A stretch of 64,000 nucleotides of DNA, from NCBI GenBank assembly GCA_963674595.2, contig CAXXFV010000016.1, forward strand, positions 736,001-800,000. Direction: 5' to 3'. A program made the translations under genes and the position numbers. Numbering within the stretch: position 1 is the first letter of the stretch; every line of letters begins with the position of its first letter. This stretch comes from a bacterium (GTDB taxonomy: Bacteria; Zhuqueibacterota; Zhuqueibacteria; Residuimicrobiales; Krinioviventaceae). The notes below the pieces were generated by a model. The model worked only from the letters and a program-made list of their open reading frames with translations. It was not told where the DNA came from and ran no database searches. Positions 1 through 19,538 of this stretch are shown piece by piece.

Positions 1-272
1 AAGACTATTTCCTGATCAGTTGTTTCAAGTATTTTGAATCCTTTTTTTTCCAGTTGACTTAACAGGGGAGTATCAGGACGAAAACCGATATAGTCCCTTC
101 CCAGTATTCTGGGCGGAAGGGAACGAATAAAGAACAATAAATTGAATAAAAATGAGATTTCATTTGGAGCAAGATCTATAATGGTTTTTAAAATTTGATC
201 TTTGGTTGCATTGACTTTGATTGTATGCTTTTCTGAGAAATGAAATTCAGGTATATATTCGTTAATAAGCAT
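1..272 (-). CDS. Hypothetical protein, SRPBCC/DUF2867-like (5' part; runs off the window edge)
   Basis: Not in the ORF track. Manual translation from ATG at 272 gives an open frame to the edge: MLINEYIPEFHFSEKHTIKVNATKDQILKTIIDLAPNEISFLFNLLFFIRSLPPR... An alternative in-frame ATG lies at 332. Confidence 0.6.
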   Translation of the reverse strand, partial: MLINEYIPEFHFSEKHTIKVNATKDQILKTIIDLAPNEISFLFNLLFFIRSLPPRILGRDYIGFRPDTPLLSQLEKKGFKILETTDQEIV

Positions 273-376
273 TTTATTATTTCGATTGTATAATTTTAAA
301 AAAAATAGACCCTTTTTTACTCTTCCATACATTCTCGGATTTCAACCTCTGGGTATTCAATAATATATAGCTATTA

Positions 377-452
377 AACTATTGTGCAAGTGAAAAAACA
401 GATATTTGTGTTTTTACTGGTTGAACTGCATTTAATCAAATAATTAGTTTTT
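377..452. repeat. Inter-cassette repeat family R, copy A
   Basis: Core 377-419 aactattgtgcaagtgaaaaaacagatatttgtgtttttactg is 35/43 identical to copy B. Imperfect inverted arms are aaaaac/gttttt and atttg/caaat. Confidence 0.8.
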
Positions 453-655
453 GTTGAATTATTGGGAGACGATAATACTTGGTTGACTATGCCTTGATTG
501 CAATCCGAGGATGAGCAGAGAGTCTTTAAATAACACCTGTGTAAACGGCGGGAAATTTTAACACACTTTAATTACTTGTTGATAGTAATAAAGTCCGAAA
601 CTTTTAATGATGCAGCAACCATTGCTATTGGGTGATGCTGATGGTAGACCATACA

Positions 656-1582
656 TCAGTCAAACCGATTGATCTCAAATTTGAAAACATCGGATCTTGA
701 ATAATGACCTGCCGCGTCAAACATCCTTTTGCACATCGTGACAAGAGTGAGGTCAATTTCAGCATAGAGAATTTCCTCTTTCATTTCAACAGGACCCGCA
801 ATGACCTCGCCGGTGGGACTGACGATGCAACTGTTCCCGGAATTGATCCACTCCCTGCCTTTCGGATAGTTCTGCTTAAATCCATAGCTATCCGGAACAT
901 CCTGCATTCTCAAAGCCAAACAGCAACTAATGACATACATACCACCTTCTCTGGCAATATGTCTCAGGCTCAATTGCCAATTTTCACTTTTGTCCCAGGT
1001 TGGGGCTGCCAGAATCTGTGTGCCGCCCATATACATGGCATTACGGGCAAGCGGCATATAATTTTCCCAGCAAATGAGGCCGCCCAGTTTTGCAAATGAT
1101 GTGTTAAATACCTGTAAAGTAGTGCCGTCGCCTTGTGCCCAAATGAGGCGTTCACCGCCTGTGGGAATTAATTTACGGTGTTTGCCCATGATATTGCCGT
1201 TTGAATCAATGAACAGCAGTGTGTTAAAAAGGCTGGCGTTGCTCGCTTCTGCATTGCGTTCATTTACTCCCATTACAACATGAATTTTCGCCTTATTCGC
1301 TGCCTTGCACAGTTTGTCAGTTGATTCATCAGGAATTGTTACAGCATTCTGAACCAGTTCTGCATACAGTTCATTTAATATAGCGCCGTTGCTGTTGGGT
1401 ACATTCCAAACCCAGTCCGGATAACCCGATATAAACGCTTCAGGAAACACTATTAGTTTGGCACCTTTTCTCCCAGCCTCTGCGATTAAGCTGCACGCTT
1501 TTTCAACAGTCTTTTCTTTGTTTAAATATATTGGGGCCGCTTGAGCAGCGCCGACTTTGAAAGGATTTCGTGTTAACGCCAC
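656..1582 (-). CDS. Nitrilase / carbon-nitrogen hydrolase
   Basis: Catalytic triad motifs FPEAF, HRKLIPT and LICWEN. The likely start is GTG at 1582, with GAGGAGG 5 nt upstream (the ORF track starts at 1627). Confidence 0.92.
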   Translation of the reverse strand: MALTRNPFKVGAAQAAPIYLNKEKTVEKACSLIAEAGRKGAKLIVFPEAFISGYPDWVWNVPNSNGAILNELYAELVQNAVTIPDESTDKLCKAANKAKIHVVMGVNERNAEASNASLFNTLLFIDSNGNIMGKHRKLIPTGGERLIWAQGDGTTLQVFNTSFAKLGGLICWENYMPLARNAMYMGGTQILAAPTWDKSENWQLSLRHIAREGGMYVISCCLALRMQDVPDSYGFKQNYPKGREWINSGNSCIVSPTGEVIAGPVEMKEEILYAEIDLTLVTMCKRMFDAAGHYSRSDVFKFEINRFD

Positions 1583-1904
1583 ATTCACCTCCTCAAGTGA
1601 TAATTGAACAAAACGTGTAATTGTCACTCACCTTGAGGTCCCAATCTCCGGAAGCTAAAATTATAATATATATAACCCAACTTTTGTATTAAATATTCAA
1701 TGTGCAAATTTTTTCAGGTTGAATTCCTCTTGTTGTAATTTTATGTTTTTGATGGATGTTACTGTTTTTTGAGAAATTTATGAAATCAGTGTTGAATTTC
1801 AAGCTGTTTAGGTATGTTTAATGGCGGGTAATGTTACCAGCTATGCGATTCATCGCAAAAAAAGCAGTGGAGTAATATGAACGTTTGGCCCGGCGATGTC
1901 GACT

Positions 1905-2981
1905 TTATTTGTAATTTAATGGTAATGTGTCTGCTATACGCAGATCTCTCCAATATCCATTTATTTTAAAAGCATCATTATATGGATTGCCCAAAGTATC
2001 AACAAGCGCTTCATCGGTTTTCATTTTAATAAAGGATAATTCAGAATACCAAAGATTTTTTGGTCTTTTCTTTGTTGGATGTTTTTTTTGCGGGAAATAT
2101 TTTGATTCTATTACTAAAATATCGTTGAAATGTATTTTTTTTATACCATTCAAATTCGTATCAGTAACCAATTCGTTACTATATTTATTAATTTCGCCTG
2201 GTTCTATTCCAAAACGATTATTTACCGACACAATTCCTTTGTAAATGTGAAATTGTTCTTTATCTATTTTATTACGAGCTAACGCAGACAAAAAATGTTT
2301 GAATGAACCTTGATATGTTTTATATCTCTGTTTTTCCCACTTTTCCATTTCTTTTGGATTTTTGGGCTGCATTTCTTTAAAAAAGAGAATGGTGTTATAT
2401 TTAACATAATCCTGCAAAATGAAATTTTCTAATATTATTTCAATGTGATATCCCAGTGCTCTATTTTCTACATGAATGAGACTATCTGAAGAAGCAATTA
2501 ATGCACCCGTATCATTCTCTTTAGTGAAATTAATTACTTCAGGATTTAGAATTTTACACTTGGCTGCATTTGTCGTTTCACCCAAAAATTCTCTGGTAAA
2601 AGTTTGTAATCTCTTCTTCCATTCTTTTGGTATATCTCCGGTAACCTGGACCATTTCGCCTTTAATTATGGCAGGTTGGAGTTCGATCAAAATATTGTTA
2701 TTGTGATTTGATTTTGAAACATCAATAGATAATTTTTTTAACTCATAGCCAATATGTTGAATTATTAAATCATATCTTCCCGCTGGAATATTATTTATAA
2801 TGAAATTACCCTCAGATGTTGTAGTGCTCCCCAATGTTGTATTTGAAAGAAAAACGTTAACAAAAAAAATGGGTTCTTTTGTTTGGGCGTCAATGACTTG
2901 TCCATTAACCGAATAATGCGATATTGAATAAGCACGAGCTGAAACCAACAATATGAATATTAGAAAAATTTTATTTTTCAA
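1905..2981 (-). CDS. Secreted protein with a carboxypeptidase-regulatory-like (CarboxypepD_reg_2) domain
   Basis: Signal peptide, then GQVIDAQTKEPIFFVNVFLSNTTLGSTTTSEGNF...IGYE. The likely start is TTG at 2981 after AGGAGG. Confidence 0.8.
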   Translation of the reverse strand: MKNKIFLIFILLVSARAYSISHYSVNGQVIDAQTKEPIFFVNVFLSNTTLGSTTTSEGNFIINNIPAGRYDLIIQHIGYELKKLSIDVSKSNHNNNILIELQPAIIKGEMVQVTGDIPKEWKKRLQTFTREFLGETTNAAKCKILNPEVINFTKENDTGALIASSDSLIHVENRALGYHIEIILENFILQDYVKYNTILFFKEMQPKNPKEMEKWEKQRYKTYQGSFKHFLSALARNKIDKEQFHIYKGIVSVNNRFGIEPGEINKYSNELVTDTNLNGIKKIHFNDILVIESKYFPQKKHPTKKRPKNLWYSELSFIKMKTDEALVDTLGNPYNDAFKINGYWRDLRIADTLPLNYK

Positions 2982-3134
2982 TTTTATCCTCCTGCTTAAT
3001 TTTTCACCTATTACGGGAGTTTGCTCGTTCACTTAAATGGTTATGCCAACTTAATCAATCCTGTAAATTCCAGGTTTTTCCTGAAAATTAAAATCTCCGG
3101 GCTGTCAAAAATATCGGCCCGGTGCTGAGAAACG

Positions 3135-3551
3135 TTATTCAGACCCGTTATTCATATCGAGTTTTCCGGAAAGGAAATAACTCATGATCATGGTGATAAA
3201 TAAAAATGATGTTTTGAACACGATCCATAAACTGGAAGGATTTCCTGCTAAATAGGCAATGAGACTTACAATGATTAAACCAAAAACCACAGGAAAAGCT
3301 GTAATCAGTATGACACATCTTCTTTCAACAGGATTTTGAACTCCCCAAATGAGAAGTATTGTCCAGCCTGCCATCAATACGCCGCCGATACTCATGGTTA
3401 GTTTATACTGAATATCCGGATTAAATTCCGAGTTGCCGATTAACAGTCCATACAGGGGAGGACATAACAATGCGGCTGCCCATACTGCGTCTGCAACAAT
3501 TCCCAGCCAGTAAGGAAATTTAATTAGAAAGATTATAGTCTTTTTATTCAT
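3135..3551 (-). CDS. Hypothetical membrane protein (about 4 TM helices)
   Basis: 138 aa with four hydrophobic segments and an AAGGA RBS. Confidence 0.75.
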   Translation of the reverse strand: MNKKTIIFLIKFPYWLGIVADAVWAAALLCPPLYGLLIGNSEFNPDIQYKLTMSIGGVLMAGWTILLIWGVQNPVERRCVILITAFPVVFGLIIVSLIAYLAGNPSSLWIVFKTSFLFITMIMSYFLSGKLDMNNGSE

Positions 3552-3637
3552 TTTAACTATTTCCTTTATCTAACATGGTTACATAAAATTAGGAAAATTG
3601 GATTAATTTACGGGAACCCTGTTTTTCAATTCTCCTG

Positions 3638-4594
<957 letters not shown>

Positions 4595-4667
4595 TGTGCC
4601 GACTCCTTTTTATATAACAGTTAGAGTACATACTACTGACATGAAATATGATACGTTGATGCCTGGA

Positions 4668-4748
4668 AAGTTTTACACCACCTTATCAAAAATACATAAA
4701 CATGGAACGATTATGCAAGTAGAAAAATAGATATTTGTATTTGTGCTG
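4668..4748. repeat. Inter-cassette repeat family R, copy B (contains a promoter-like TTGCAT-N18-TATTTT on the minus strand)
   Basis: Core 4706-4748 aacgattatgcaagtagaaaaatagatatttgtatttgtgctg. About 38 further bp on the left (aaagttttacaccaccttatcaaaaatacataaacatgg) resemble the same side of copy D. Confidence 0.85.
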
Positions 4749-4756
4749 TTTTTTGA

Positions 4757-6103
4757 TCATGCTTTAAATTCTTGTTTATAGAGGTCAAACATTATTTTTG
4801 CGGTACCGGATATGGTTGTTCGGTTATACCCTGAAACAGAGGTTAACAGTGTATCATTCAATGGGCTGGTCCATTTGTCAGGTAACGCATCCGCGCCCAG
4901 GACCATGCCCATGATTGAACCAACGGTTGCACCGTTGCAGTCGGTATCAAAACCGGGCCATACAGATTTTGTAATTGCCTGCTCAAAGTCTCCTTCCGAC
5001 CATAGCAGTGCCATCGTTACAATCTGAGCATTCGAGATTACATGGCACCAGTCATGTGAGTGATATTCATCCCATTGTTGATGAATTCGTTTCACCGCGT
5101 CTTGATAAGTTATGCCCTCGTCGTGCCATGCAAGAACTGATCGTACTTTTTCGCTAAAACGGCTGTTGAATGGAATTTCGTTCAAGCCAATTTCAATAAT
5201 CCTGCAAATATCGTTTTCCACACCGGCCGCGGCTAATGCGGCAGCAACCCACATTTCGCCGTAAATGCCATTTTTAACATGAGAGATACTCGCGTCACGC
5301 CAGGCCAGTTCTGCCGCTAATTCAGGCCGGCCCAGGGCAACATACCCATAAAAATCCGCTCGTATTTGGGCACCAATCCATTCGCGATATGGATTTCGCA
5401 CGACAGCCGAAAGTGGTGGACTGATTTGGTTGGCAAAATTTCGATAAGCCACACGTTCGGCCGTACATGTGCTTAATAATGGAATTTGCGTCATCCAAAA
5501 CTGAGCAACGTCATTTGAAGTAAACTGTATACCTTTTGATTTAACAAGAGCCATACCGGTTATTGTATAATCTGCATCATCATCTCTGGGCATGTGATCA
5601 AACTCTGTGAACATCTGTGCATCCGGTTTGAGTTCGGCTAAAATATCTTTAGTAATCCCTAACCGCCAAAAATAATCTGTTAGCATCTCATGTCCAGCCG
5701 CCTTCACTATCGGCCATAATTGATCCGTACGCCAACCTTCAACCGGTTTTCCCAGTAAGCAGCCGGCACAACGCCCCAGCCAGGCTCCGTGGATTTTATC
5801 CGCAGTAACGTTATCTGTATATTTTTTTGCCGATATTCTGTCTTTTGTTTGAGGCCGTGTATCCCGGATGGCTTGCAAATCAGAAGGTTCCTCAAAAGTA
5901 TAATCATCTCGAATCGGTAATGTTTGTACTGTGTCCAGCAAATTATTCATTTTTTGCTGTAAATCAAGAGTATGCTCAATACCTTCTTTGGAGAGTAAAT
6001 TAAATTCTTGCTCAACAGAAGAAATATCCCGACCTTCCTGGACAGCTTGTAGTTTTTCAATTTCCACATCCTCGGAATTCCACCATAGCCATAAATTTTT
6101 CAT
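4757..6103 (-). CDS. ADP-ribosylglycohydrolase family protein
   Basis: Motifs GAWLGRCAGCLLGKPVEG, RDDD, EWIGAQIRAD and GFDTDCNGATVGS. Confidence 0.9.
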   Translation of the reverse strand: MKNLWLWWNSEDVEIEKLQAVQEGRDISSVEQEFNLLSKEGIEHTLDLQQKMNNLLDTVQTLPIRDDYTFEEPSDLQAIRDTRPQTKDRISAKKYTDNVTADKIHGAWLGRCAGCLLGKPVEGWRTDQLWPIVKAAGHEMLTDYFWRLGITKDILAELKPDAQMFTEFDHMPRDDDADYTITGMALVKSKGIQFTSNDVAQFWMTQIPLLSTCTAERVAYRNFANQISPPLSAVVRNPYREWIGAQIRADFYGYVALGRPELAAELAWRDASISHVKNGIYGEMWVAAALAAAGVENDICRIIEIGLNEIPFNSRFSEKVRSVLAWHDEGITYQDAVKRIHQQWDEYHSHDWCHVISNAQIVTMALLWSEGDFEQAITKSVWPGFDTDCNGATVGSIMGMVLGADALPDKWTSPLNDTLLTSVSGYNRTTISGTAKIMFDLYKQEFKA

Positions 6104-6231
6104 AATTATTCCCAAGTTGTTCCATATACTGCTTGCGATCTTGAGACGACATCGTTTTATACAACGACTTTTTTAGCCTTAGCAGTGACATTTTTTGAAT
6201 TTTATATTACCTGCCCTCAGTTCTGGAATAA

Positions 6232-6259
6232 ATAGTGTTAAACCATATATTAACACTAT
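6232..6259. promoter_or_regulatory. Perfect 10-8-10 inverted repeat (candidate operator or recombinase site)
   Basis: atagtgttaa-accatata-ttaacactat in the intergenic gap upstream of the ADP-ribosylglycohydrolase gene. Confidence 0.45.
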
Positions 6260-6459
6260 GTTTACGGGGCAGTTGATCGCACGGCAAAACGTCTCGGTCA
6301 AACATAAAATATATAAAAACAGTTTTGAATTTTCAAGTTTAAACTGTTTAACCATTTTGGAAAAGATATATCCAATTATTAATAATGCTATACGGTCAAT
6401 AGGCTTTCAAATAGTCTGCTATAATTTGGATTTATCGTTCTTATTAAAAAGCAGCCCCT

Positions 6460-6545
6460 GAACGATTATGCAAGTGAATAATAGATATTTGTGCTATTGC
6501 TGATTTAACAGTGTTTTGAAATATTATTTGGGTTGTGTTTCTGTC
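6460..6545. repeat. Inter-cassette repeat family R, copy C
   Basis: Core 6461-6502 aacgattatgcaagtgaataatagatatttgtgctattgctg is 36/42 identical to copy D. A degenerate tail aaatattatttgggttgtgtttctgtc follows. Confidence 0.85.
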
Positions 6546-6559
6546 ATTTATTTATGGAT

Positions 6560-7549
6560 TCACCGCACCGCTTTTTTTATGATTCCAAGCTTCCACGTTA
6601 ACATGGCATAGGAACCCTGATAATCGTTTTTAAGGATTCCCTGAATAAGCCATTCGCAATCGTCTGGTTGATATTCCATTAACTGATTGCAGTCTGACCG
6701 GATAACTTCACCATGAGAAATCATCTCCAACCAGGGTTTGGACTGCCCTGTATATTTGAGCTGGGCACCGGTTGCATAGGTGTCGGTCACTTTATGCCAG
6801 GGTCCGTTCAAGTCGTCAGCAACGGCAATTCCAAATGATCGAATCGTCTCGTTCTTTAATTCATATATCATATGGTATTCCTGGGTATCTTTAACCTTAT
6901 AGATATGAACAGCCTCATGAACACCCTGTAAAGCAATTTCAGGGGCGCTCCAACCGGTTGGAAAATTTTCAATTTCTGTTGTTCTAACAATCACATCCTT
7001 TTGTGATTGTGTATAAAATAGATAAACATTTTTTTTGTCACATATCACCCAAAAATCAATCCATTTTTCCGGACTGTCTTTTTGCAGCAATTGTATCGGG
7101 TTTTGCCAGGTTTCAGGTTGTGAAATTGTCGTTGTTGTTGAAAATGCCGGTTGATAGTTGGCGTCCTTGTTTTGAAAAATGAGATACCATTTATTTTGAG
7201 GCTCAAAAAAGAAAATTTGCGGTGCACAGCCGTATCTGCTTTTTCCGCGAATCGTTTTTAATTCGTGCCTTGGAGCTGTTTGTAAATCCTCCTGTTTTTT
7301 GGCTGATACATATCCTGTTGTATATTCATTCTTGTCCCGGGCCGTATAGAAAACATGCCACATGTTCTCATAAAATACAACAGAGGGATCTTTAACGGCA
7401 ATTTCATCAAATGAACCTTCCGGACCAGGCAACAGAACAGGATCACCAACGAGCCATGTATTCGATTCTGCATGACGGGTACATCCGGTTAATAAAATCG
7501 AACTTAATGAGATAAAAATCATTAAAACTTTTATAGTGATATTTTTCAT
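6560..7549 (-). CDS. GH62-like alpha-L-arabinofuranosidase, lipoprotein
   Basis: Lipobox LTGC and GH62 motifs KDPSVV...WHVFYT, APQIFFFEPQNKWYLIFQ, WIDFWVICD, HEA..IYKV and ISHGEVIR. Confidence 0.85.
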   Translation of the reverse strand: MKNITIKVLMIFISLSSILLTGCTRHAESNTWLVGDPVLLPGPEGSFDEIAVKDPSVVFYENMWHVFYTARDKNEYTTGYVSAKKQEDLQTAPRHELKTIRGKSRYGCAPQIFFFEPQNKWYLIFQNKDANYQPAFSTTTTISQPETWQNPIQLLQKDSPEKWIDFWVICDKKNVYLFYTQSQKDVIVRTTEIENFPTGWSAPEIALQGVHEAVHIYKVKDTQEYHMIYELKNETIRSFGIAVADDLNGPWHKVTDTYATGAQLKYTGQSKPWLEMISHGEVIRSDCNQLMEYQPDDCEWLIQGILKNDYQGSYAMLTWKLGIIKKAVR

Positions 7550-7618
7550 TGAAATTATTTCCTTAAACGGCTGATATGAAAGTAATCTATCGGGATATGA
7601 TAGGTAAATAGTAATAGC

Positions 7619-7760
7619 AAAGTTTTACCACGCTTTATTAAAAATAAATAATCAAGGAACGAATATGCAAGTGAAAAATAAATATTTGTTACATTGCTGA
7701 ATTTTATATTTCATCATATTATCTGGTGTTATCAAATTATTTTGGGGTAGAAATCCCTGT
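7619..7760. repeat. Inter-cassette repeat family R, copy D (core plus tail)
   Basis: Core 7658-7699 aacgaatatgcaagtgaaaaataaatatttgttacattgctg. Tail 7734-7760 aaattattttggggtagaaatccctgt matches the tail of copy E. Confidence 0.85.
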
Positions 7761-8463
7761 TGATTACTTGTGCTTTAATTGATGATGGTTTATAATCGTA
7801 AAGGCCAAGTCTTTGTTCTTATGTGTGCAAAAATCGGAACCTCTGGACGATCAAAAATAACTATTAATTAGATTTTAACTGTTCTTTGAGTACAAGTCCA
7901 TATCCTTTTCGCCACTCTTTATCAATCAATATAAAATTTTCAAAATTTCCAGTTTCAATTTCTTTCCATTCAATATGCTCTAAAACAATAATTTGAAAAT
8001 CTTGCTTCAATTCATTTTTAAAAAAATTAATATGGTTATCAAGTGTTTGTAAAGCCTTGAAAAATGTTTTTCTTTAATAACTATCTTTGTCATTAGTCTC
8101 ATAGTATGGACTATCTGGTTGATCTAAGATTAGAAAAGGGGGAATATAGGGAATTTCTTTTTTAGCAAATAATCTATGGATAGCAGCAAAAAATGCTAAA
8201 TGTAAAAAAAGGTGATTCGACGAACTTCCAATATTTCTAACAGTATTATCTCTATATATCACTTTTTCATCTATTTTTTTTAAATGGATTAATTTTGTTT
8301 TAAAGTCAAAAATTGGTTTATAGTCCTTATACCCACTTAAGCTAAAATCAACTTCTCTAAAAATTTCTTGCATATATTCACCAAGTGTGTCTAATGTATC
8401 GCTTCTATCAACTTCAGTTATTTCTTTCTTTAATGCTTTAATTGTAAGAAAAGCAAGCGTTGT

Positions 8464-9270
8464 TTACAAAATATCGGGATAAAAATATTGAATTAGTTTT
8501 TCTTCAGGAGTTAGTCCATCAATGCCTTTATGAGGTCTTACTCCGTTGTAATAATTGACAAATCTTTTTAGCTCATTTTTACGATGGGCTGATGATTTAA
8601 AAACAGTTTTATTATGCCAAAGCTCGACAAGAGTTCGTATAACTCTTTCAGCTTTGCCATTTGTTTGTGGCCTTTTAACTTTGGTAAATTTTTGTTCAAT
8701 ACCATGTTCTTTGCACAACTTCATAAACTTATGATTATTCGGATCACCTCGGTACTCTCGGCCATTATCAGTATAAAATTGTTCTATTGTATATGGACAT
8801 TCATCCACGACTTGCTCCAAAAACTTTTTAGCTGAATATTGGGTTTTATCAGGTAAAATAGCAGCATACAGTTCTCTAGAAAAGTCATCAATGGCCACAA
8901 ACAGGTATTCCGTTCGTTCAAAAGGAGATTCCCCCTTAATTAAGGGAAGTTTTTTAGTGTCACCATGTATCATTTGTCCTGGATAGTCTTTATTATATCG
9001 TTTGGCCTGACGTTTTAGCTTGTCCTCAAGTTTTTTTTCGATTTTAGCCAAACGTTTAATGCCGTATTTTAAACAGCGAAAACGCTTGTTTACACTCTTG
9101 TGAATTGAATAATCTTTTTGTCGGCCATTATGGATTATTTTATAAATTGTAGGTCGACTGACATGAAACTCTCGTGCTAAATCACAAACACGTCTTTTTT
9201 CGGAAAAATATAATGTGCAAACTTTTTCCCGTTGAATCGGCGTTAATCTGGTCTTTTTATGAATTACCAT
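8464..9270 (-). CDS. IS481-family DDE transposase
   Basis: N-terminal HKKTRLTP..R and HTH, then IHGDTK, VAIDDFSR, TDNGREY, PQTNGKAER and YYN..RPH. Confidence 0.93.
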   Translation of the reverse strand: MVIHKKTRLTPIQREKVCTLYFSEKRRVCDLAREFHVSRPTIYKIIHNGRQKDYSIHKSVNKRFRCLKYGIKRLAKIEKKLEDKLKRQAKRYNKDYPGQMIHGDTKKLPLIKGESPFERTEYLFVAIDDFSRELYAAILPDKTQYSAKKFLEQVVDECPYTIEQFYTDNGREYRGDPNNHKFMKLCKEHGIEQKFTKVKRPQTNGKAERVIRTLVELWHNKTVFKSSAHRKNELKRFVNYYNGVRPHKGIDGLTPEEKLIQYFYPDIL

Positions 9271-9329
9271 AGGATCTCCTTTTATTAAAAATTAGGAAAT
9301 CCCGAAATTGCAAACAACATTAAATTTGC

Positions 9330-9383
9330 TTCTCATGAATTGAATCCTATCTCTTTATAAGGAACGGATTCAATTCATGAGAA
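9330..9383. promoter_or_regulatory. Perfect 18 bp hairpin inside the IS end, upstream of the transposase
   Basis: ttctcatgaattgaatcc (9330-9347) pairs with ggattcaattcatgagaa (9366-9383). Confidence 0.7.
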
Positions 9384-10702
9384 AACTGTAAACAACTCTA
9401 ATTTAATTTACACTTTAATATCATTTTCAATTTTTTCTATTGACTTAGTATAGTCAATGCTTACATGATCATGACTATAGAATTCTAACGAACTTTTTAC
9501 TTCACCTAAAAATATTAGTTGTTGTTTTCTATTTGTGTCTACCACCTTTTCATCAACTGAAATGTTTTGAATATTTGCATCTATTCGTTGAAGTTTATCT
9601 TTTATCTCTTTAATTTTTCCTGTTAAATCTATGATCGCAGGTGATTCTTTTTGAGCAATAAAATTTTTTATTGCTTGATACTCTATGGCAATTGAGTTTA
9701 TGATTGTATCAGTTTTACTGATGTTAATAACATCAGTAAAATTTTCTTGTAAATATAAAATAGGTTTTAAACTGTCGGTATCATTTTTGAGTAAATTTTT
9801 ATATTTTTTGTATTGTGTAATATATTTTTCATATTTTGAAAGTTTAATCTGGAGTCTTAATTTTTCTTGTTCATAATTTTCAAGTTCTAATTGGTTGTCC
9901 AAAATTGGTATCTTCGATATATCTTGAAGTTGTTGTTTTAACTCGACGATACACTCTTCGTTGGACATTTTTAAACTTACTATGTTTAACGATTTTGCTT
10001 TTTGACATAATTTATCAATTTCTTCTTCAAAAGTATTGAACTTTTTACTGAGATGCTCTTCTTGTCTTATAAGCTTTGCTAATTCTTTCTCTTTCTCTAC
10101 AACCATCTCGTGCTTTATTAAATTATCAATTGTTGTTACTCCCAATGCTATATCAAAAATTCTTGCCAAAGCCTCTTGATATCGAATGTATTTTTCGCCA
10201 GATTGTTTGTCAAATAGAACTTCATCACTTGATAATACATTTCTTCTTTGAGTGTTGAATAACAAAAAATATCTTGGAGATATTTTTGTACCTTTTGTAA
10301 TTTTATTGCCACCATACGGAAATACTACGTTATCAGTTATCTGGAATTCCAAATTTATAATATTCCTAATTTTATCTTCAGGGAAATTGGGAAAGGGGGC
10401 CTCAGGGATCTCTCCAGAAGATGAAAAATAATAATCGTTTATGCTTTTACTGTGTCTTACAATTGTTAAATGCTTATCATTGATAATAAAGTTTATACCA
10501 AACCATGCAATTTGATCAATGTACTCGTCCCCTTGAACTATTGGGCTCGAACTCGCAAAGAAGCAAAAGTCTATTATCTCAATAATAGTAGACTTTCCTG
10601 TTGATTGCTCTCCAGTTATTATATTAACTTTATTATTAAAAAATACAAGTTCTCTAAATGATCCATTATTTAACCATATTCCTATTTTTTTTAAGTAAAA
10701 TT

Positions 10703-11161
10703 TCATAATTCAATCCTAAGTTTGAAATATAATTCTCCTGAATTTTCTTGTAACATATTAGATACTATTTTAGACGCTTGTACAATTTTTTGTGCTCTCT
10801 TTCCTAACTTATTATTATTAAAATCAAACTTTTCTAGTTTATCTTTTACAATTATAATCTTATTTTGCTTAGTTTTAATAAAACCTAATTTTTCAGCAAA
10901 CAAAATTGTGTTAAGAGATAGTGGTAAAAAGGCAATAAATCTATTATTAAAATTTAAAAAGCATTCAATTTTTGATAATATCAGATCTTCGATACCTCTT
11001 ATTTTTACCCGCTCATCTTTCATATAATTTGTTAATGGTTTGTGGAGTAATAATGGTTGAATCAACATTGCTTTAGCGTAGTTGATTTCCTCATACTCTC
11101 TTATAGTAGATAAAAATGCAACAAGGGAAATACCAATATTGTTATATATTTCAATCTTCAT
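10703..11161 (-). CDS. lmuC: Lamassu LmuC / ABC-three-component middle component
   Basis: About 152 aa (MKIEIYNN..., LIQPLLLH) lying between the effector and the ATPase, overlapping both neighbours. Confidence 0.78.
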   Translation of the reverse strand: MKIEIYNNIGISLVAFLSTIREYEEINYAKAMLIQPLLLHKPLTNYMKDERVKIRGIEDLILSKIECFLNFNNRFIAFLPLSLNTILFAEKLGFIKTKQNKIIIVKDKLEKFDFNNNKLGKRAQKIVQASKIVSNMLQENSGELYFKLRIEL

Positions 11162-12362
11162 AGTTATATTCTTGCTTCCATGTATATTTCCACCCAATTT
11201 TGGGTATATCTGATATTTTTATGAATTGTCCATTTGATATAGCTCTATATTCAATTGTATGACCTGATAAATTCAAATCAATTTTTTTGATATTTATAAA
11301 TACTTTTTTAGCGTTTTTATTATTGTATTCTTCCTCCCAATATGCTTCTTCAAATAATGGTCTCCATTTGTCTATGGTATTTTTATCTAGTTGTTCTATA
11401 TCTTTTTGAGATATTTCTCCGTTTTGTTTTAACTCAATTAAATTATTTACAGCCAAATTTCTATTATAGTCATACTCATAAATTTCTTCATCTGTATATC
11501 CAATATCATTTAATTGTTTGGCAAAAATTCTATTTTTAATTCTAACATCTTTTGTATAGTTATCTAGCTTATCAAAAAATGGTAGTCGATCACTATTTGC
11601 ATTTTGAAAGATTTTTATTGTTTTAAAATAGAAATCATCTCCACTATATTTTACTGACTCCTTATTTGCTACTTTATTATAAAAATCGATTTTAAGTTCT
11701 CCTATGAGCTCTTTTAATGTGTTATCAATTCGATTTTCTTTGATAGACTTTCTGAATTTGAGTGCTTCTTTTATTTCGCCGCTAATATCATCGAGGTCCA
11801 ATTGAAAAGAAATGTTCTTAAAAAATATTTCTAGTAGATTATCATTTAACAACAATACGTTTTTTAGATAATCTATTTTTTTGTCTTGTTTTTCCGTTTT
11901 GTCTGTTTTTTTCTTTTCTTGATGAACCTTTTCCAATTCATCTAAATAATTAGTTAAAAATGTTTTTAAATCAGCAAAATGGCCCTTTATTTTGAAGTTT
12001 TTAAAAGAATTTAAAAAACTATTGTTTTCATTGTCTGACTTATTTGAAATAAATATAAATTTAGTATTTTGAAGATATTTTGACTTATCATTTTCTCTTT
12101 GTATTTTATCTATCCATAATGATAATGTTTTCCATAAATCCTTATCTGATGTGCTAAGATTAATTGGTTTGTTATCTTTGTTTGTTTGAATTGTATGTTT
12201 GAGTTGGTATAAAATTAATTTTTCACCGTTTTCTGTATGAACATCTTCATTTACTTCGAAACCAGCAATTTCATTTTTTTCTAATTTTAATAATTTTAAT
12301 AGGAAATATAGAAATTGATATTCATATCCTAAAAGTTTATCATCTGCCTTGGTGTCAGTCAT
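11151..12362 (-). CDS. lmuA: Lamassu LmuA effector: Cap4/DUF4297-like PD-(D/E)xK nuclease plus ABC-3C C-terminal domain
   Basis: N-terminal A...GYEYQ, EVNEDV, LYQLKH and DLWKTL..W. The C-terminus ends SNGQF..ISD.PKIGW..W. It is the first gene of a three-gene operon with a middle component and an SMC-like ATPase. Confidence 0.8.
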   Translation of the reverse strand: MTDTKADDKLLGYEYQFLYFLLKLLKLEKNEIAGFEVNEDVHTENGEKLILYQLKHTIQTNKDNKPINLSTSDKDLWKTLSLWIDKIQRENDKSKYLQNTKFIFISNKSDNENNSFLNSFKNFKIKGHFADLKTFLTNYLDELEKVHQEKKKTDKTEKQDKKIDYLKNVLLLNDNLLEIFFKNISFQLDLDDISGEIKEALKFRKSIKENRIDNTLKELIGELKIDFYNKVANKESVKYSGDDFYFKTIKIFQNANSDRLPFFDKLDNYTKDVRIKNRIFAKQLNDIGYTDEEIYEYDYNRNLAVNNLIELKQNGEISQKDIEQLDKNTIDKWRPLFEEAYWEEEYNNKNAKKVFINIKKIDLNLSGHTIEYRAISNGQFIKISDIPKIGWKYTWKQEYNYED

Positions 12363-12641
12363 CTACAAACCTTTTCGAAAAATTATATTTGGTAATTTAA
12401 GATAATCAGATTGATAATTAAATTTTTCATTAAATATTATTCTGAGTTACTATAACATAGTTTTAGGAATGAACTTTGATCCAATATTTTAATCAATTCT
12501 ATTCGTTTTGAAATTATATCATAAGGATTTATATAATATTCACATTTTGGAACAAGATAACAGGTATGCATATTTTCCCCCAAACCCAATAATTTTGTCA
12601 GCGGGTCAACAGGAATATGATTTTAATTCCGACGCAATCTT

Positions 12642-12785
12642 TCCTCGTATGTGCTGTGAGACCCGTTTTTATGATGGAGACCAGTAAAGGACTTTTCAGG
12701 AACGCCCGTGATTTTCCAATTGTCCTGAAAAAAGTGTCCTTGTACCAACAAAAGAATTGTACAAATTATTTAAAAACAACGCAAG
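12642..12785 (-). repeat. Repeat family L, copy 1: sigma70-like promoter plus structured leader
   Basis: Minus-strand TTGCGT (12779-12784)-N17-TACAAT (12756-12761). 12758-12785 is identical to 17277-17304. Stem ttttcagga/tcctgaaaa is extended by aaggac/gtcctt. Confidence 0.85.
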
Positions 12786-12834
12786 AGGTTTTTGCAAGAA
12801 TTGTTAAAATCCGCCCGCTTGTTTCGATCCGGGC

Positions 12835-12902
12835 GTGCGAAAATAGATATTTGTGTTATTGCTGATTCTATAAAATTATTTTTAGGGTAGAGAACCCTGT
12901 CC
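12835..12902. repeat. Inter-cassette repeat family R, copy E (partial core plus tail)
   Basis: gtgcgaaaatagatatttgtgttattgctg followed by the tail aaaattatttttagggtagagaaccctgtcc. The TTGCAT-bearing half is replaced by a GC hairpin cgcccg/cgggcg (12812-12835). Confidence 0.8.
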
Positions 12903-12905
12903 ATT

Positions 12906-12931
12906 TCTCCCCGGGAAAAATCCCAGGGAGA
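12906..12931 (-). terminator. Probable terminator hairpin downstream of the SSS transporter
   Basis: GC-rich stem-loop tctccccgggaaaaatcccagggaga about 80 bp past the stop codon. Confidence 0.45.
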
Positions 12932-13009
12932 GCAATTTATTATCCTTGTCATCGCCGATAAACCCGGTTCTCAAAAAAGCAGACAGGTATATAACATATA
13001 TCTAAAACT

Positions 13010-14680
13010 CTAATTCAAAATTGAATATTTAATAAACATAAATAAATACACAAAAAGAAAAACACTTAACAAAATTATAGTCCATAAACCCAGACTTTTG
13101 TAAAAAGGGATGCTCTCCCGCTCATTTGCCGGTAAACGAGAGTATTTGCGGTTCCATATAATTCCGCCACCAGTTTTTTCCGGTTTAGGTGGTGACGTTA
13201 AATAACTTGCCACAATCATATACAGCAAACTTGCTGCCCAGCTTATAAATGCGCGATTTAAAAAACTGTTCAGCCAGAGAATGATATTATAATATGAAGC
13301 ATCCGTATAACCGCGCAAAACATAACATATAATCTTGAGCAATACACTAAACACAATCCCAAAAATAAGCGTCCCCGTGGCTGCATTGGCTGTTGCCCGT
13401 TTCCACAGAATACCGACTGTAAAAATAACAATAATGGGAGCAGCGATATAGGAACTCATATCCTGGATATAAATAAAAAGACCACGGCCGAATTTTACGA
13501 TATTCGGCGCCCAAATCGTTGCGAGTATAATAAAAGTCGTTGTTGTCCACCGTCCGAATTTGACCAGATCGTTTTCATCGGCATTTTTGTTGATAAATCT
13601 TTTATAGATATCTAATGAAAACATGGTAGACGATGAGTTAAGTACGCTCGAAATCGTGGACATAACAGCAGATGCCATGGCCGCTAATAATAGTCCCTGC
13701 AATCCGACCGGAAATAAATCTTTAATCAACGTCAGATAAACGCTATCTCGTTCAAGACCGCCACCGTATATTGCAAAAGCTAAAATTCCGGGGATTACTA
13801 CAAAAAACGGAAGCGCGATTTTTATAAATCCCGCAAAGATTACTCCCATCCGGGCATCCCATTCGCTTCTGGCTGCCAGGCATCTCTGGACGTAATATTG
13901 CTTGGTAGCAACCGCCCAGAGACACACCGTAAACCAAAAAGAGAAAATCCCTGTCCACGGTGCAAAATCGTGTGTTGCCGGCTGCAAGAGACTCATCCGC
14001 TCCGGTGAAGCAGCAATATTCGCATTAATTGCTGTTAAAAGTCCGCCGGCTTTATCTCTTGCGAGAAATAAGATCATACCCGCTCCGATAAACATCACAA
14101 TTACCTGGATCACGTCGGTCCAAATTACTGAAAGCAAACCACCATATATACAGTATGCGCCGGTAGAAACAGCAATTATTATTATACCGGTAACAAGACC
14201 ATATTCAGGGTGTGTATTGAATAACTCTATATTTTGAAGAAATAAATCATTTATGATTTTTCCGCCCGCGTATAATGCACCAGCCAGTACAACGAAAACA
14301 CCCTGCGTGATTAACATAGAAGATAAAATTATCCGTGTACGGTGGTCAAAACGGCGTTCCAAAAATTCCGGTATTGTGTAGAGTTTTGACCGGTAATAAT
14401 AAGGCAGGAACAACCATACCAGGATGACGAATGAAACGACTGTCAGCCATTCCCAGTTTGCCGGTAAAATACCGTAAAAGTAGGCGGCCCCAACCATACC
14501 GATAAAATGTTCAGTGGAAATATTGGAGCCGATATATGATAATCCTACCGCATACCACGGTACATCACGACCCGCCAGGAAATATTGTTCAATTGTATTC
14601 TTTTTATTTCTGGCAACAAGGATACCAACCAGAACAATAATGAAAAAGTATAGAAAGAAAACACTCAGGCTAATAGTCAT
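13010..14680 (-). CDS. Sodium:solute symporter (SSS/SGLT-like)
   Basis: Motifs YFLAGR, SNISTEHFIG..G, TIPEFLERRF, YGGLLSVIWTDVIQ, QRCLAARS and MSTISSVLNS, with about 14 TM helices. Confidence 0.95.
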   Translation of the reverse strand: MTISLSVFFLYFFIIVLVGILVARNKKNTIEQYFLAGRDVPWYAVGLSYIGSNISTEHFIGMVGAAYFYGILPANWEWLTVVSFVILVWLFLPYYYRSKLYTIPEFLERRFDHRTRIILSSMLITQGVFVVLAGALYAGGKIINDLFLQNIELFNTHPEYGLVTGIIIIAVSTGAYCIYGGLLSVIWTDVIQVIVMFIGAGMILFLARDKAGGLLTAINANIAASPERMSLLQPATHDFAPWTGIFSFWFTVCLWAVATKQYYVQRCLAARSEWDARMGVIFAGFIKIALPFFVVIPGILAFAIYGGGLERDSVYLTLIKDLFPVGLQGLLLAAMASAVMSTISSVLNSSSTMFSLDIYKRFINKNADENDLVKFGRWTTTTFIILATIWAPNIVKFGRGLFIYIQDMSSYIAAPIIVIFTVGILWKRATANAATGTLIFGIVFSVLLKIICYVLRGYTDASYYNIILWLNSFLNRAFISWAASLLYMIVASYLTSPPKPEKTGGGIIWNRKYSRLPANERESIPFYKSLGLWTIILLSVFLFVYLFMFIKYSILN

Positions 14681-14729
14681 CTTGCAAATTCCTCATTATG
14701 CTAATTCACGCCGGTAAATTAATTTAATT

Positions 14730-15152
14730 CTATGAATTACTTTTTCCTTTTAAGGCCTGGTCTTTCAGATCAGGGAACCGATCGAACACCCATCCCGCCG
14801 GAGAGATAATCCACAGTGCTTCAAGCGGAGTTTTGTTTGGATTTTTTATAGAGTGATAGGTCCCGATGGGAAAAAATACCGCATCTTTTGGTGAGATGGG
14901 TATTTCTTTATGATCTTCATCTGCAATGACAATACCTTTTCCGTTAAGACAGAAAAATATTTCCTCCTGATCATCATGGTAGTGACCCGGTTCGGCTGTT
15001 CCGCCTGGTTCAATGACAACCATGCCAAACGTCAGGTGTTTTGATCCGACAGTCGTGGGATCAACCATTTTGAAATTTACACGTTGTGAAAGAACAATGG
15101 GTTCACAATCATTTGGATTAACTTTTATCGCTTTGTTTTTTCCTCGTTCCAT
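14730..15152 (-). CDS. Cupin domain protein
   Basis: Metal-binding cupin motifs GHYHDDQEEIF...G and P.GTYH..KN. Confidence 0.88.
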   Translation of the reverse strand: MERGKNKAIKVNPNDCEPIVLSQRVNFKMVDPTTVGSKHLTFGMVVIEPGGTAEPGHYHDDQEEIFFCLNGKGIVIADEDHKEIPISPKDAVFFPIGTYHSIKNPNKTPLEALWIISPAGWVFDRFPDLKDQALKGKSNS

Positions 15153-15213
15153 CTAGTACTCCTGTATTTGATAACCTGCCTGATATTTTCATTACATTTA
15201 GTTGTCGAATTTT

Positions 15214-15639
15214 TTAAAAGTCTGTGTTGTTTATTTCCGGGAATTCAACAAAACCTTCTCTGAAATTTTTATCTCCATAAAAGGTCAGCATGAGCAACGG
15301 AGTATCACCGACATTTTTTACCATATGTTTGCATCCTTCAGGGACGAGAATTGCTTCTCCTGCATTTACAGCATAGGTTTTGCCGTCACCCCACAGCTTT
15401 GCAGATCCTTTGAGGATGTACATGACTTCTTCCATATTTTCGTGCATATGGGCAGGTGTTGTGCATGCTCCAACATCAATTTCTACATCAATGATGGTAA
15501 GATCGTTCGAATTGTTTGTTTGTCCTGAAAATAAAATTCGGGCTACTCGTCCCGGTAATTCTAAAAGCTCTGCTGTATTTCGTGATTCTACTTGTGGCAA
15601 CCGCTGAGAATTATTTTCTTTTATGTTATTGCTATTCAT
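15214..15639 (-). CDS. Cupin domain protein
   Basis: Motifs AHMHENMEEVMYILKG and VPEGCKHMVKN. Confidence 0.88.
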   Translation of the reverse strand: MNSNNIKENNSQRLPQVESRNTAELLELPGRVARILFSGQTNNSNDLTIIDVEIDVGACTTPAHMHENMEEVMYILKGSAKLWGDGKTYAVNAGEAILVPEGCKHMVKNVGDTPLLMLTFYGDKNFREGFVEFPEINNTDF

Positions 15640-15641
15640 TG

Positions 15642-16526
15642 TTATAATGTCTCCTTTAACTTTTCGAACTTTAATTGCAGACTTCTTAACTCATCGAATC
15701 CGATTAGTCTGTTAAAATCCTGGAACGAAATCATTTTATCAAACAGTGCTTTTGTGGTCCCTTTTTCCTTTAATTCCTGTAGCGCCATTTGAGCTGCAAA
15801 TGTAGCTGCGTACATTGCCGAATTGCAATAATATACAACATCAAATCCTATCTCTTCCAGCTCCGTAATCGATAGAAAGGGGTATCCTGAACCTTCAACC
15901 ATCACGGCAAGTGTCGGACCTTCTACTTCCTTTACCACACGATCCATGGACTCTCTATCATGAATATCTTCAATAAAAAGCAAGTCTGCCCCATGTTCGT
16001 AATATAAATTTGCACGGTCGATTGCATCGGAGAGGTCTTCTGCATCAGTCCGGGCAATAATTAACAGATCCGTTGTGCGGGCATCTGTTACCGCTTTTAA
16101 CCGCATAACCATGTCTTTTGGTTTTACGACTTCACGTCCGGCTGTTAGTCCTGCCCGTTTTGGGAAAAACTGATCTTCGATTTGAATTCCCGATGCTCCG
16201 GCCAATTCCATCCCTTTGATCACTCTGCGAATATTCAAGAGCGCCCCGCCGCCGGTATCAATATCGGCAACAATAGGTATATCCACCACGGCCCGCATTC
16301 GACGAACAGTATCAAGCATTTCGGTCGGAGTAATCATCTCCATATCAGGTAATCCCAGTTGGGTAGCGGATACCGCATATCCCCCGGCTAAAATAGCAGG
16401 AAAACCACAATCTGCCGCAATACGGGCAGTTAACGGATCGTATACTCCGGGAATGACGAGTATGGATGGATCTTTTACCAGTTCTACCAGGCTTTTTTTA
16501 CTTCCGGATTTTTGTTTTGGTGACAT
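15642..16526 (-). CDS. Isocitrate lyase/PEP mutase superfamily enzyme with an atypical active-site loop
   Basis: Motifs PGVYD, GLPD, PIVADIDTG, GIQIEDQ, IIARTDA and GAD.LFIE. The loop reads PKRAGL instead of PKRCGH. Confidence 0.9.
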   Translation of the reverse strand: MSPKQKSGSKKSLVELVKDPSILVIPGVYDPLTARIAADCGFPAILAGGYAVSATQLGLPDMEMITPTEMLDTVRRMRAVVDIPIVADIDTGGGALLNIRRVIKGMELAGASGIQIEDQFFPKRAGLTAGREVVKPKDMVMRLKAVTDARTTDLLIIARTDAEDLSDAIDRANLYYEHGADLLFIEDIHDRESMDRVVKEVEGPTLAVMVEGSGYPFLSITELEEIGFDVVYYCNSAMYAATFAAQMALQELKEKGTTKALFDKMISFQDFNRLIGFDELRSLQLKFEKLKETL

Positions 16527-16659
16527 AATTCTAACTATCCTTTAATTATCATGTTAAATTTTTCCAGTTTATTATTAAACTATTGAAATTAAATCTCTTT
16601 GAATCAGATAGCAAATTGAGTCAGATATTGCCGGACGATTTTTTTGCAGCTTTGTTTGA

Positions 16660-17070
16660 TTAAAAAAAAGTCATGTTTATAAATCGCCCATTTTCTTTAA
16701 AATGTTTATTGTTCAATTTAATTATGTTTTTGATATATTTGGGTATTTTAGGGAGAGGGTTGGTATGGCGTGGTAAATCCCGCCGAATCTGTGTGTGCGG
16801 GTGAAATTTTAACGGCGACAAATGGTCTGTCTCATTTTCAATTATTTTCGCCTCTTTGCCCCGATTTTTTTCTGCGCAATAGGGTAGAATAAAAGCAAAT
16901 TCAACCTGCGCCAAGGTTTCGGATTTGTGACCCCTGTTATTTTTGTAACCTAAAATATTTCCATCGGTTAACGAAACTCTTGTGTTAAAACCGTATTCAA
17001 ACTTTTGAATGATACTTTTTACCAGTTTTTTCAGATCAATAAGCGTATCCCGGATGCGAATACTTTTCAT
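16660..17070 (-). CDS. Hypothetical protein
   Basis: 136 aa ATG-initiated ORF directly behind leader L copy 2. No recognisable domain; it may be a remnant. Confidence 0.4.
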   Translation of the reverse strand: MKSIRIRDTLIDLKKLVKSIIQKFEYGFNTRVSLTDGNILGYKNNRGHKSETLAQVEFAFILPYCAEKNRGKEAKIIENETDHLSPLKFHPHTQIRRDLPRHTNPLPKIPKYIKNIIKLNNKHFKENGRFINMTFF

Positions 17071-17164
17071 GTTAAAAATTCTTCTTTCTCGATTTCAGTT
17101 CGGTTTTTACCTGTTACCTGCAAAAATTTTTTAAGTGAAACTATATGAAAATAATTTTCAACTG

Positions 17165-17304
17165 TCCTTGTATGTGCTGCTAAAAACCGTGTTTAAAATA
17201 GAGACCAGTAAAGGGCCTTTCAGGAACGTCGTGGTTACCTGATTTTCCTGAAAATTTTTTAACCGATAAAAACAAGTGTACAAATTATTTAAAAACAACG
17301 CAAG
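17165..17304 (-). repeat. Repeat family L, copy 2: promoter plus structured leader
   Basis: TTGCGT (17298-17303)-N17-TACACT (17275-17280). It shares blocks gtatgtgctg, gagaccagtaaagg and tttcaggaacg with copy 1, and has stem tttcaggaa/ttcctgaaa. Confidence 0.85.
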
Positions 17305-17451
17305 GGATTTATGAAAAATTTATATATATAGAATTTCAATAATTATTCATCAAAATAGAACCGAATTAGCTTTTGTTTGCATTAATGTCAAGACTGTTTT
17401 ATATTTCAGAAGAATATAAAACACTAAAACAGATGAAACGGAGATAATAAT

Positions 17452-19503: not shown

Positions 19504-19509
19504 AAACAA

Positions 19510-19536
19510 AAAAGGGAACCATTAAGGTTCCCTTTT
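19510..19536. terminator. Bidirectional rho-independent terminator
   Basis: aaaagggaacc-attaa-ggttccctttt between convergent genes. Confidence 0.85.
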
Positions 19537-19538
19537 AT

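Follow-up and report, generated by a model that had tools for sequence, protein, structure and literature searches.

A 64,000-nucleotide (nt) stretch of contig CAXXFV010000016.1 (positions 736,001 to 800,000), from a bacterium of the family Krinioviventaceae, is examined here and referred to throughout as the window. Towards its left end lies an array of unrelated gene modules separated by an intergenic repeat, R, which behaves like a cassette joint at the borders of swappable modules. Gene content switches at R in related strains, an observation that supports module exchange. The explanation preferred here, for which belief and doubt are about evenly balanced, is that R is a promoter-bearing junction repeat at which homology or short-homology recombination adds, removes or swaps accessory modules.

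R consists of five intergenic copies, R_A to R_E, found by repeat finding, mismatch search and MAFFT alignment, all on the plus strand in a single orientation and about 50–110 nt in length. When searched by BLAST against the whole genome (6.6 Mb in 37 contigs), R_B and R_D share 84.7% identity over 72 nt (E 6e-15), R_B and R_C 85.4% over 48 nt (E 2e-7), R_C and R_D 85.1% over 47 nt (E 2e-7), R_A and R_B 75.8% over 66 nt (E 3e-6 to 6e-6) and R_C and R_E 96% over 26 nt (E 4e-4). Each copy, when left out of the nhmmer training set, is recovered as the top non-training match in the genome, with E-values of 8.7e-5, 2.6e-7, 1.4e-9, 1.3e-4 and 4.6e-3. With an nhmmer profile and a sequence-only covariance model the five copies score 55–73 bits, against 20 bits for the next best match in the 37 contigs, and a 28-nt pattern of the core with up to 3 mismatches occurs at 2 places, against 0.00 expected from 100 shuffles. 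Neither model finds a further copy in the window or the genome, and when the halves are profiled separately no orphan half appears elsewhere in the genome; a weak half match on contig C11 lies inside a 654-amino-acid open reading frame (ORF) and was rejected. R is private to 12.5 kb of this locus and is not found left of the window.

A first-pass annotation of the window, made from its letters, had listed five co-oriented intergenic copies and none in the remainder of the window, with identities of 36/42 between R_C and R_D and 35/43 between R_A and R_B, and with the core of R_B 8 bp past a stop codon. The searches above found all five again at the same places, both identities are exact, the absence extends to the rest of the genome, and the stop codon (4757) lies 8–10 nt away. 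The repeat is longer than the 42 nt of the core then given, since R_B and R_D are alike over about 110 nt, and the suggestion that the array might run on past the left edge is contradicted by the lack of any copy elsewhere in the genome. Scanning the whole genome with models of R, as had been proposed, identifies a locus-private element and not a genome-wide regulon motif.

Read on the gene (minus) strand, R is formed by two halves. The first is an AT-rich box, CAGCAAT..ACAAATATCTATTTTT, and the second is promoter-like, with CACTTGCAT and TATTTT set 17–18 nt apart, after which R_B and R_D have a further leader of about 60 nt in common. The most conserved stretch of the alignment is a small dyad, AAATA-GA-TATTT. 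R_E is the exception to the two-part design: its homology to the other copies starts at the A-run, and a G+C hairpin and a copy of a second repeat family, S, stand where the promoter half would be. The arrangement is best explained, as judged from sequence, by the AT-rich box closing one module and the promoter-like half opening the next. R_B is located 8–10 nt after the ADP-ribosylglycohydrolase stop codon and 112 nt ahead of the aldo/keto reductase start, while R_C is located approximately 350 nt upstream of the ADP-ribosylglycohydrolase start. The promoter reading is supported by the S family, whose own promoter is built alike (CACTTGC.., 17 nt, TATTAT or TATAAT), and by R-like sequences in two other genera. 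When sigma-70 and Bacteroidota-type motifs were counted over 2473 and 2177 upstream regions, only a weak strand bias and no clear promoter consensus emerged; the same counts recovered the ribosome-binding site.

Twenty runs from 9 studies contain the stretch or part of it, 4 of them with at least half its words and none recorded as RNA, and the contigs of four runs (X3, X5, X6 and X10) were compared with positions 1–18000 of the window; uncovered stretches and joints with a short side of 20–23 letters were left out of the reading of breakpoints. In X5 (a 1017-nt contig) and X6 (an 8530-nt contig), which come from different studies and are about 3% diverged from the window, position 4725 is joined straight to 6480 with no extra letters. 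This joint removes 1754 nt carrying the ADP-ribosylglycohydrolase and leaves one hybrid R, with R_B on the left and R_C on the right. Because eleven letters at the joint match both sides, the crossover is placed in the common core, AATAGATATTTGT. An assembly artefact is an unlikely source of the joint, because the longest identical run between R_B and R_C, 16 bases, seems too short to merge k-mer paths; k was presumably 31 for these assemblies. In X6, moreover, the Lamassu island (7679–12586) is replaced by 2822 other letters. The left breakpoint falls right after the A-run of R_D (7678) and the contig rejoins the reference at 12587, near the 3' end of S, retaining GH62 and the left part of R_D on one flank and S with the symporter operon on the other; a further 85 nt, with the hairpin and the box of R_E, have given way to 80 different letters. 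A check for gene content that switches at R, suggested by the first-pass annotation, thus turns out in favour of R as a border, through the 4725 to 6480 joint in two runs and the replacement starting at 7678 in one.

X3, elsewhere identical to the window, is without the insertion sequence in LmuB (8435 joined to 9413), and X10 has a deletion within Lamassu from 8442 to 12024. X10 also has a 34-nt deletion inside R_D with 11 letters common to both sides, indicating that short-homology deletion does occur in this population. There are about nine breakpoints in all; R cores, about 1% of the 18 kb compared, hold three of them.

All genes lie on the minus strand from 18 kb left of the window through position 17070. 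Pfam searches of the ORFs confirm the earlier claim that every R copy stands between unrelated minus-strand modules; gene A, previously considered DUF2867-like, has no Pfam match. In minus-strand order the array starts with S, module 5, the R_E box, the G+C hairpin and T run, the second S and Lamassu, and continues with R_D, GH62, R_C, the ADP-ribosylglycohydrolase, R_B, module 1, R_A and gene A (see the table). Modules are 1.2–5.2 kb in size and contain up to four genes. The array genes have no evident common pathway, and domain searches of their proteins recognised no regulator gene or domain. G+C content across Lamassu is 23–30%, versus 38–48% in the neighbouring modules. The Lamassu system is decaying: LmuB is interrupted by the insertion sequence and by an in-frame stop at 8074–8076, the last 49 profile positions being encoded in 7867–8073. 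An end segment of the insertion sequence (9271–9407) has 98.5–100% identical copies on contigs C4, C8 and C14.

Table. Features of the R array and its surroundings, in positions of the window.
Feature	Position	Strand	Description
R_A	357-426	gene strand (-)	full copy (box and promoter-like half), upstream of gene A
R_B	4667-4752	gene strand (-)	full copy; TTGCAT, 18 nt, TATTTT
R_C	6440-6509	gene strand (-)	full copy, promoter-like half weaker
R_D	7619-7706	gene strand (-)	full copy, 109 nt ahead of GH62 start
R_E	12838-12871	gene strand (-)	half copy, box only
Invariant core AATAGATATTTGT of R_B	4726-4738		holds strain joint 4725 to 6480
Invariant core AATAGATATTTGT of R_C	6480-6492		partner in strain joint 4725 to 6480
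A-run and core of R_D	7674-7689		X6 contig departs from reference after 7678
Gene A		-	207 amino acids, no family match
Module 1	656-4594	-	aldo/keto reductase, 138-amino-acid protein, CarboxypepD_reg-domain protein, nitrilase (CN_hydrolase)
Module 2	4757-6115	-	ADP-ribosylglycohydrolase; 4726-6479 absent in X5 and X6
Module 3	6560-7549	-	GH62/GH43-like glycoside hydrolase
Module 4	7867-12362	-	Lamassu island, 23-30% G+C
LmuA	11151-12362	-
MC3-like middle gene of Lamassu	10703-11197	-
LmuB, in pieces	9408-10706, 8074-8373, 7867-8073	-
Insertion sequence in LmuB	8436-9412	-	rve transposase 8464-9270
S copy 1	12570-12811	-	upstream of LmuA, next to R_E
Terminator-like G+C hairpin, then T run	12812-12835	-	between R_E box and S
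Module 5	13010-17070	-	136-amino-acid protein, PEP-mutase/ICL-family protein, two cupins, sodium:solute symporter
S copy 2	17121-17320	-	head of module 5, right end of co-oriented gene run

The proposed mechanism is based on the two-part design of R. Each module would start with the promoter half and end with the box, and a head-to-tail pair of modules would create one R. Recombination between direct copies would loop a module out as a circle carrying one R, which could re-enter by the reverse reaction, a Campbell-type exchange, with the crossover expected in the invariant core. Such recombination would be driven by homology or short homology and would not be of the integron type; DNA uptake from other strains possibly precedes it, and selection would keep both functional halves of R intact. 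Whether the events were gains or losses, and which enzyme took part, are points that we infer. Homology is put first because the R_B/R_C joint is a clean R x R joint in an identity block of 11–13 nt, because a deletion at 11 nt of homology is found in the same population, because no recombinase is linked to the array and because R occurs nowhere else. The idea of the first-pass annotation, module accretion at a recombination site that also supplies a promoter, survives in part: the locus-private junction repeat and the switching of strains at R stand, while site specificity and an R-linked recombinase are not borne out.

Several points weigh against this explanation. For an exchange that depends on RecA, 13 identical bases are a short stretch. 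The X5 contig keeps to the reference across R_D as far as 7747 and diverges 44 nt outside R, into 3269 unlike bases, with little cover of the Lamassu region beyond. The strain contigs have only 2–3x depth, and the letters inserted in X6 are known by length only. Because the R hexamers agree with the sigma-70 consensus at only 8/12 positions and are not among the best 60 of 98 sites in a promoter scan, we infer the promoter activity of the second half, and a better hexamer pair (6336–6308) lies between R_C and its gene about 350 nt away. Finally, two of the three core breakpoints, those of R_E and of X6 at 7678, are not R x R joints, yet they share one A-run; a cut at a specific site would be the simpler explanation of this.

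This last point leads to the alternative that R is the site of a non-integron cassette system, in which an unlinked site-specific recombinase would cut at the A-run and core, excising, inserting and swapping modules. The R_B/R_C joint, the X6 breakpoint and the start of R_E homology all lie within about 15 nt of one another in a repeat of 100–140 nt, and the latter two have no R partner on one side. The invariant core contains the dyad, the module swapped in X6 is bounded by an R core and the 3' end of S, and among the proteins of the genome are 8 tyrosine recombinases, including an integron integrase. Against this, Pfam searches of 22 + 12 ORFs find, apart from the rve transposase, no recombinase either in the window or in the adjoining 18 kb on the left, and the genome has no serine recombinase. 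The earlier statement that the window encodes no recombinase holds to that extent: contig C16 has no tyrosine recombinase, but the rve transposase (8464–9270) lies inside the array. R exists at one locus only, with no donor sites or other arrays, its clean joint in an identity block is what homology alone predicts, and the X5 breakpoint lies outside R here as well. Selection for intact R halves could by itself produce the clustering of breakpoints. A site-specific recombinase acting at R is considered unlikely, albeit with enough in its favour to be kept tentatively in view. A slimmer chance is given to R, possibly with S, forming a non-integron cassette system whose unlinked recombinase would excise, insert and move accessory modules between strains by cutting double-stranded DNA at the A-run/AATAGATATTTGT core; were this so, R would be a sequence-defined, promoter-supplying counterpart of attC.

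Alternatively, R could be nothing more than regulatory DNA that co-regulated genes have in common, a duplicated promoter with a site for an activator or repressor, the differences between strains being incidental. Its blocks resembling -35 and -10 elements and its conserved upstream box fit such a role, single R-like sequences stand upstream of genes in two other genera, and there is a known class of homologous upstream regions that precede unrelated genes (PMC3575422). Three of about nine breakpoints falling in some 1% of the sequence is not what incidental differences would give, however, and R_E has the box without a promoter half. The array has no recognisable regulator gene, its genes are without an evident common pathway, and the genome outside the locus lacks the motif; taken together these make duplication of a regulatory region decidedly improbable. 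A genome-wide regulon operator or promoter was rejected, there being no copy outside the locus, no regulator domain and no relation among gene functions. A dispersed repeat of the repetitive extragenic palindromic or miniature inverted-repeat transposable element type was likewise rejected, as all five copies occur within 12.5 kb and without a hairpin.

Resemblance to integrons is limited to the layout. The integron integrase, at C3:115823–116767, is a strong TIGR02249 match (453.7 bits versus a cut-off of 265), and a simple repeat search finds no attC array near it. No integrase with attI adjoins the R array, the only integron integrase being that on C3. Folds of 121-nt single-strand DNA, on both strands, give copies A–D z-scores of -1.35 to +1.15 and no attC-type hairpin; the value of about -2.1 to -2.5 for R_E is owed to the adjacent terminator-like G+C hairpin and not to R. 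The attC core-site motif is GTTRRRY, and a heptamer of this form stands beside only copy A (GTTGAAC), 1/5. The first-pass annotation had already noted that R does not fit attC, and both the missing hairpin and the core motif bear it out. That R is attC, and the array an integrase-less attC cluster served by the C3 integrase, can be given almost no credence: an integron integrase is present and co-oriented modules are divided by a repeat, but R folds no better than shuffles, four of five copies are without the heptamer, the modules are 1.2–5.2 kb with up to four genes, and the integrase is on another contig. At the C3 locus itself, an S copy abuts the integrase start codon and CRISPR arrays with a period of about 74 nt are located a few kb downstream.

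Searches of 40 relatives and of two public contig collections gave no convincing copy of R. Synteny was compared in five genomes of the same family, belonging to other genera. The nitrilase has one good homologue, with 71% identity in G015, and the homologue of the reductase is on another contig; homologues of the ADP-ribosylglycohydrolase reach at most 30% identity, GH62 has one homologue of 35%, and the symporter has paralogues at 36–38% only. Conservation of the same genes in the same order, which the first-pass annotation had set against its proposal, is not seen in these five family members, though relatives so distant make the comparison weak. A strict R pattern occurs in 0 stretches of genome_contigs and 0 of metagenome_contigs, while a looser 25-nt pattern gives at least 104 and at least 116 single-match stretches from unrelated taxa. 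The best of these loci reach 24.5 and 25.1 bits (80 + 80 scored, model R1), versus 55–65 for true copies, and they were rejected; the matches are taken as chance because all but 9 of 96 cover only the part selected by the pattern.

Single R-like sequences of about 25 bits are found in two other genera, at L011 967–1021 (G011) and L010 1373–1432 (G020). Both retain the box, a TTGCA/CTGCA AATCGTTC block and a TGTATTTT block, and the one in G011 lies between two co-oriented genes. The G020 sequence has pieces of an IS200-like (Y1) transposase gene next to it and a DinD-like gene downstream, both recognised by eye; a DinD-like N-terminus, again by eye, is seen downstream of an S copy on contig C18. 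Other local intergenic repeat families of the genome are mostly G+C-rich coding fragments, and only one, on contig C14, resembles R in kind. At C14:96660–104159 there are three local upstream repeats of 190–280 nt with 73–79% identity, before large co-oriented genes, and this family has an inverted repeat TTGTCC..GGACAA.

The S family, specific to this lineage and represented by two copies in the array, is far more widespread. Three nhmmer rounds identify 110 copies genome-wide, of about 220–260 nt, all intergenic, with 107/110 co-oriented with the next gene. The 93 proteins encoded downstream of S fall into 75 BLASTP clusters. LmuA and the integron integrase are among these proteins, and by eye, from N-termini only, some have a TIR-, caspase-, restriction- or DUF262-like appearance. 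S has a good promoter-like start followed by a covarying hairpin at positions 51–120 of 217, paired in 74% of cells versus 32–50% with the partner column shifted. Many G-T pairs on the S sense strand point to an RNA leader rather than a recombination hairpin. RNAalifold found no structure in a MAFFT alignment of 58 copies, and the hairpin emerged only on the profile alignment. S has no match in Rfam, and BLAST against the 40 relatives returns one 40-nt match only; at E ≤ 1, Rfam has nothing at R or S in positions 1–20000 of the window, and two sub-threshold MicX matches near 19.5 kb. On its sequence features, S could represent either a new type of cis-regulatory leader or a family of mobile promoters.

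Some S copies have further features. After the leader, many have a G/T-rich tract, GGGTTGGGTGGGGTGTG, as at C9:142264–142489, which is degenerate in the window copy; the tract could form a G-quadruplex. At one locus (L248, C29:43501–53500) four co-oriented S copies stand 1.1–1.9 kb apart, with a fifth, opposite, nearby. Each precedes small ORFs, including a duplicated pair of 112 + 97 amino acids (copies 99% identical), which resembles by appearance a two-gene cassette of the toxin-antitoxin type.

If exchange at R is real, an uncultured glycan-degrading bacterium reshuffles a small accessory array, phage defence included, with no need of an integron, a tRNA island or a linked recombinase, and a ready promoter is supplied to each incoming module. 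The locus allows one to ask whether promoter-like repeats are merely regulatory or are also substrates of gene flux. Together with the 110 copies of S before accessory and defence genes, R suggests a flexible genome organised behind a few reusable upstream elements.

The literature searched contains no locus-private, two-half, promoter-bearing junction repeat with its core at strain-level module exchange, although several known systems share part of this description. Putative mobile promoters are near-identical upstream sequences before unrelated genes of one genome with no mobile element attached (PMC3575422; Nijveen, Matus-Garcia, van Passel 2012), the threshold being 80% identity or more across 50 nt or more ahead of non-paralogous genes. 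R_B and R_D, before the aldo/keto reductase and GH62, are within this definition (84.7% over 72 nt), and the other R pairs are borderline (75.8–85.4% over 47–66 nt). Unlike mobile promoters, R is confined to five consecutive junctions and has a second half, which belongs to the preceding module; it also coincides with strain-level gain, loss and replacement of the genes it flanks, which lay outside the scope of that survey (PMC3575422).

Integron arrays and attC clusters are similar in their co-oriented modules, repeated site, junctions that are hybrids of two halves, and the presence of a defence system. In contrast to these, R modules bring a promoter-like half of their own, conservation of R lies in its sequence and not in its structure, and R is without a hairpin, a conserved core-site motif or an adjacent integrase or attI. 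Tandem accretion, described in PMC5704250 as repeated integration into a regenerated attachment site, and the cis-mobilizable elements treated there also involve modules that are without recombination genes and divided by direct repeats. Unlike that system, the R array has no tRNA-type target gene, integrase or transfer-gene remnants: no tRNA or tmRNA is found in positions 1–22000 of the window or in 18.4 kb to its left, the 22 + 12 ORFs of array and left flank hold no integrase or transfer-gene remnant by Pfam, and R overlaps no gene end. Its modules are also far smaller than those of that text, and R has promoter-like sequence in place of a conserved gene end.

The Lamassu slot, which in X6 holds a different segment between the same flanks, has the character of a replacement slot and so resembles a minimal mobile element. 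Such elements, according to Saunders and Snyder in 2002, are reportedly differing genes between conserved flanks, with no mobility genes and presumably exchanged by homologous recombination. The term "minimal mobile element" is used of Neisseria in PMC1538595. In the R array, unlike in these elements, the flanks are short repeats, R and S, and not conserved genes, and the repeat recurs at successive slots.

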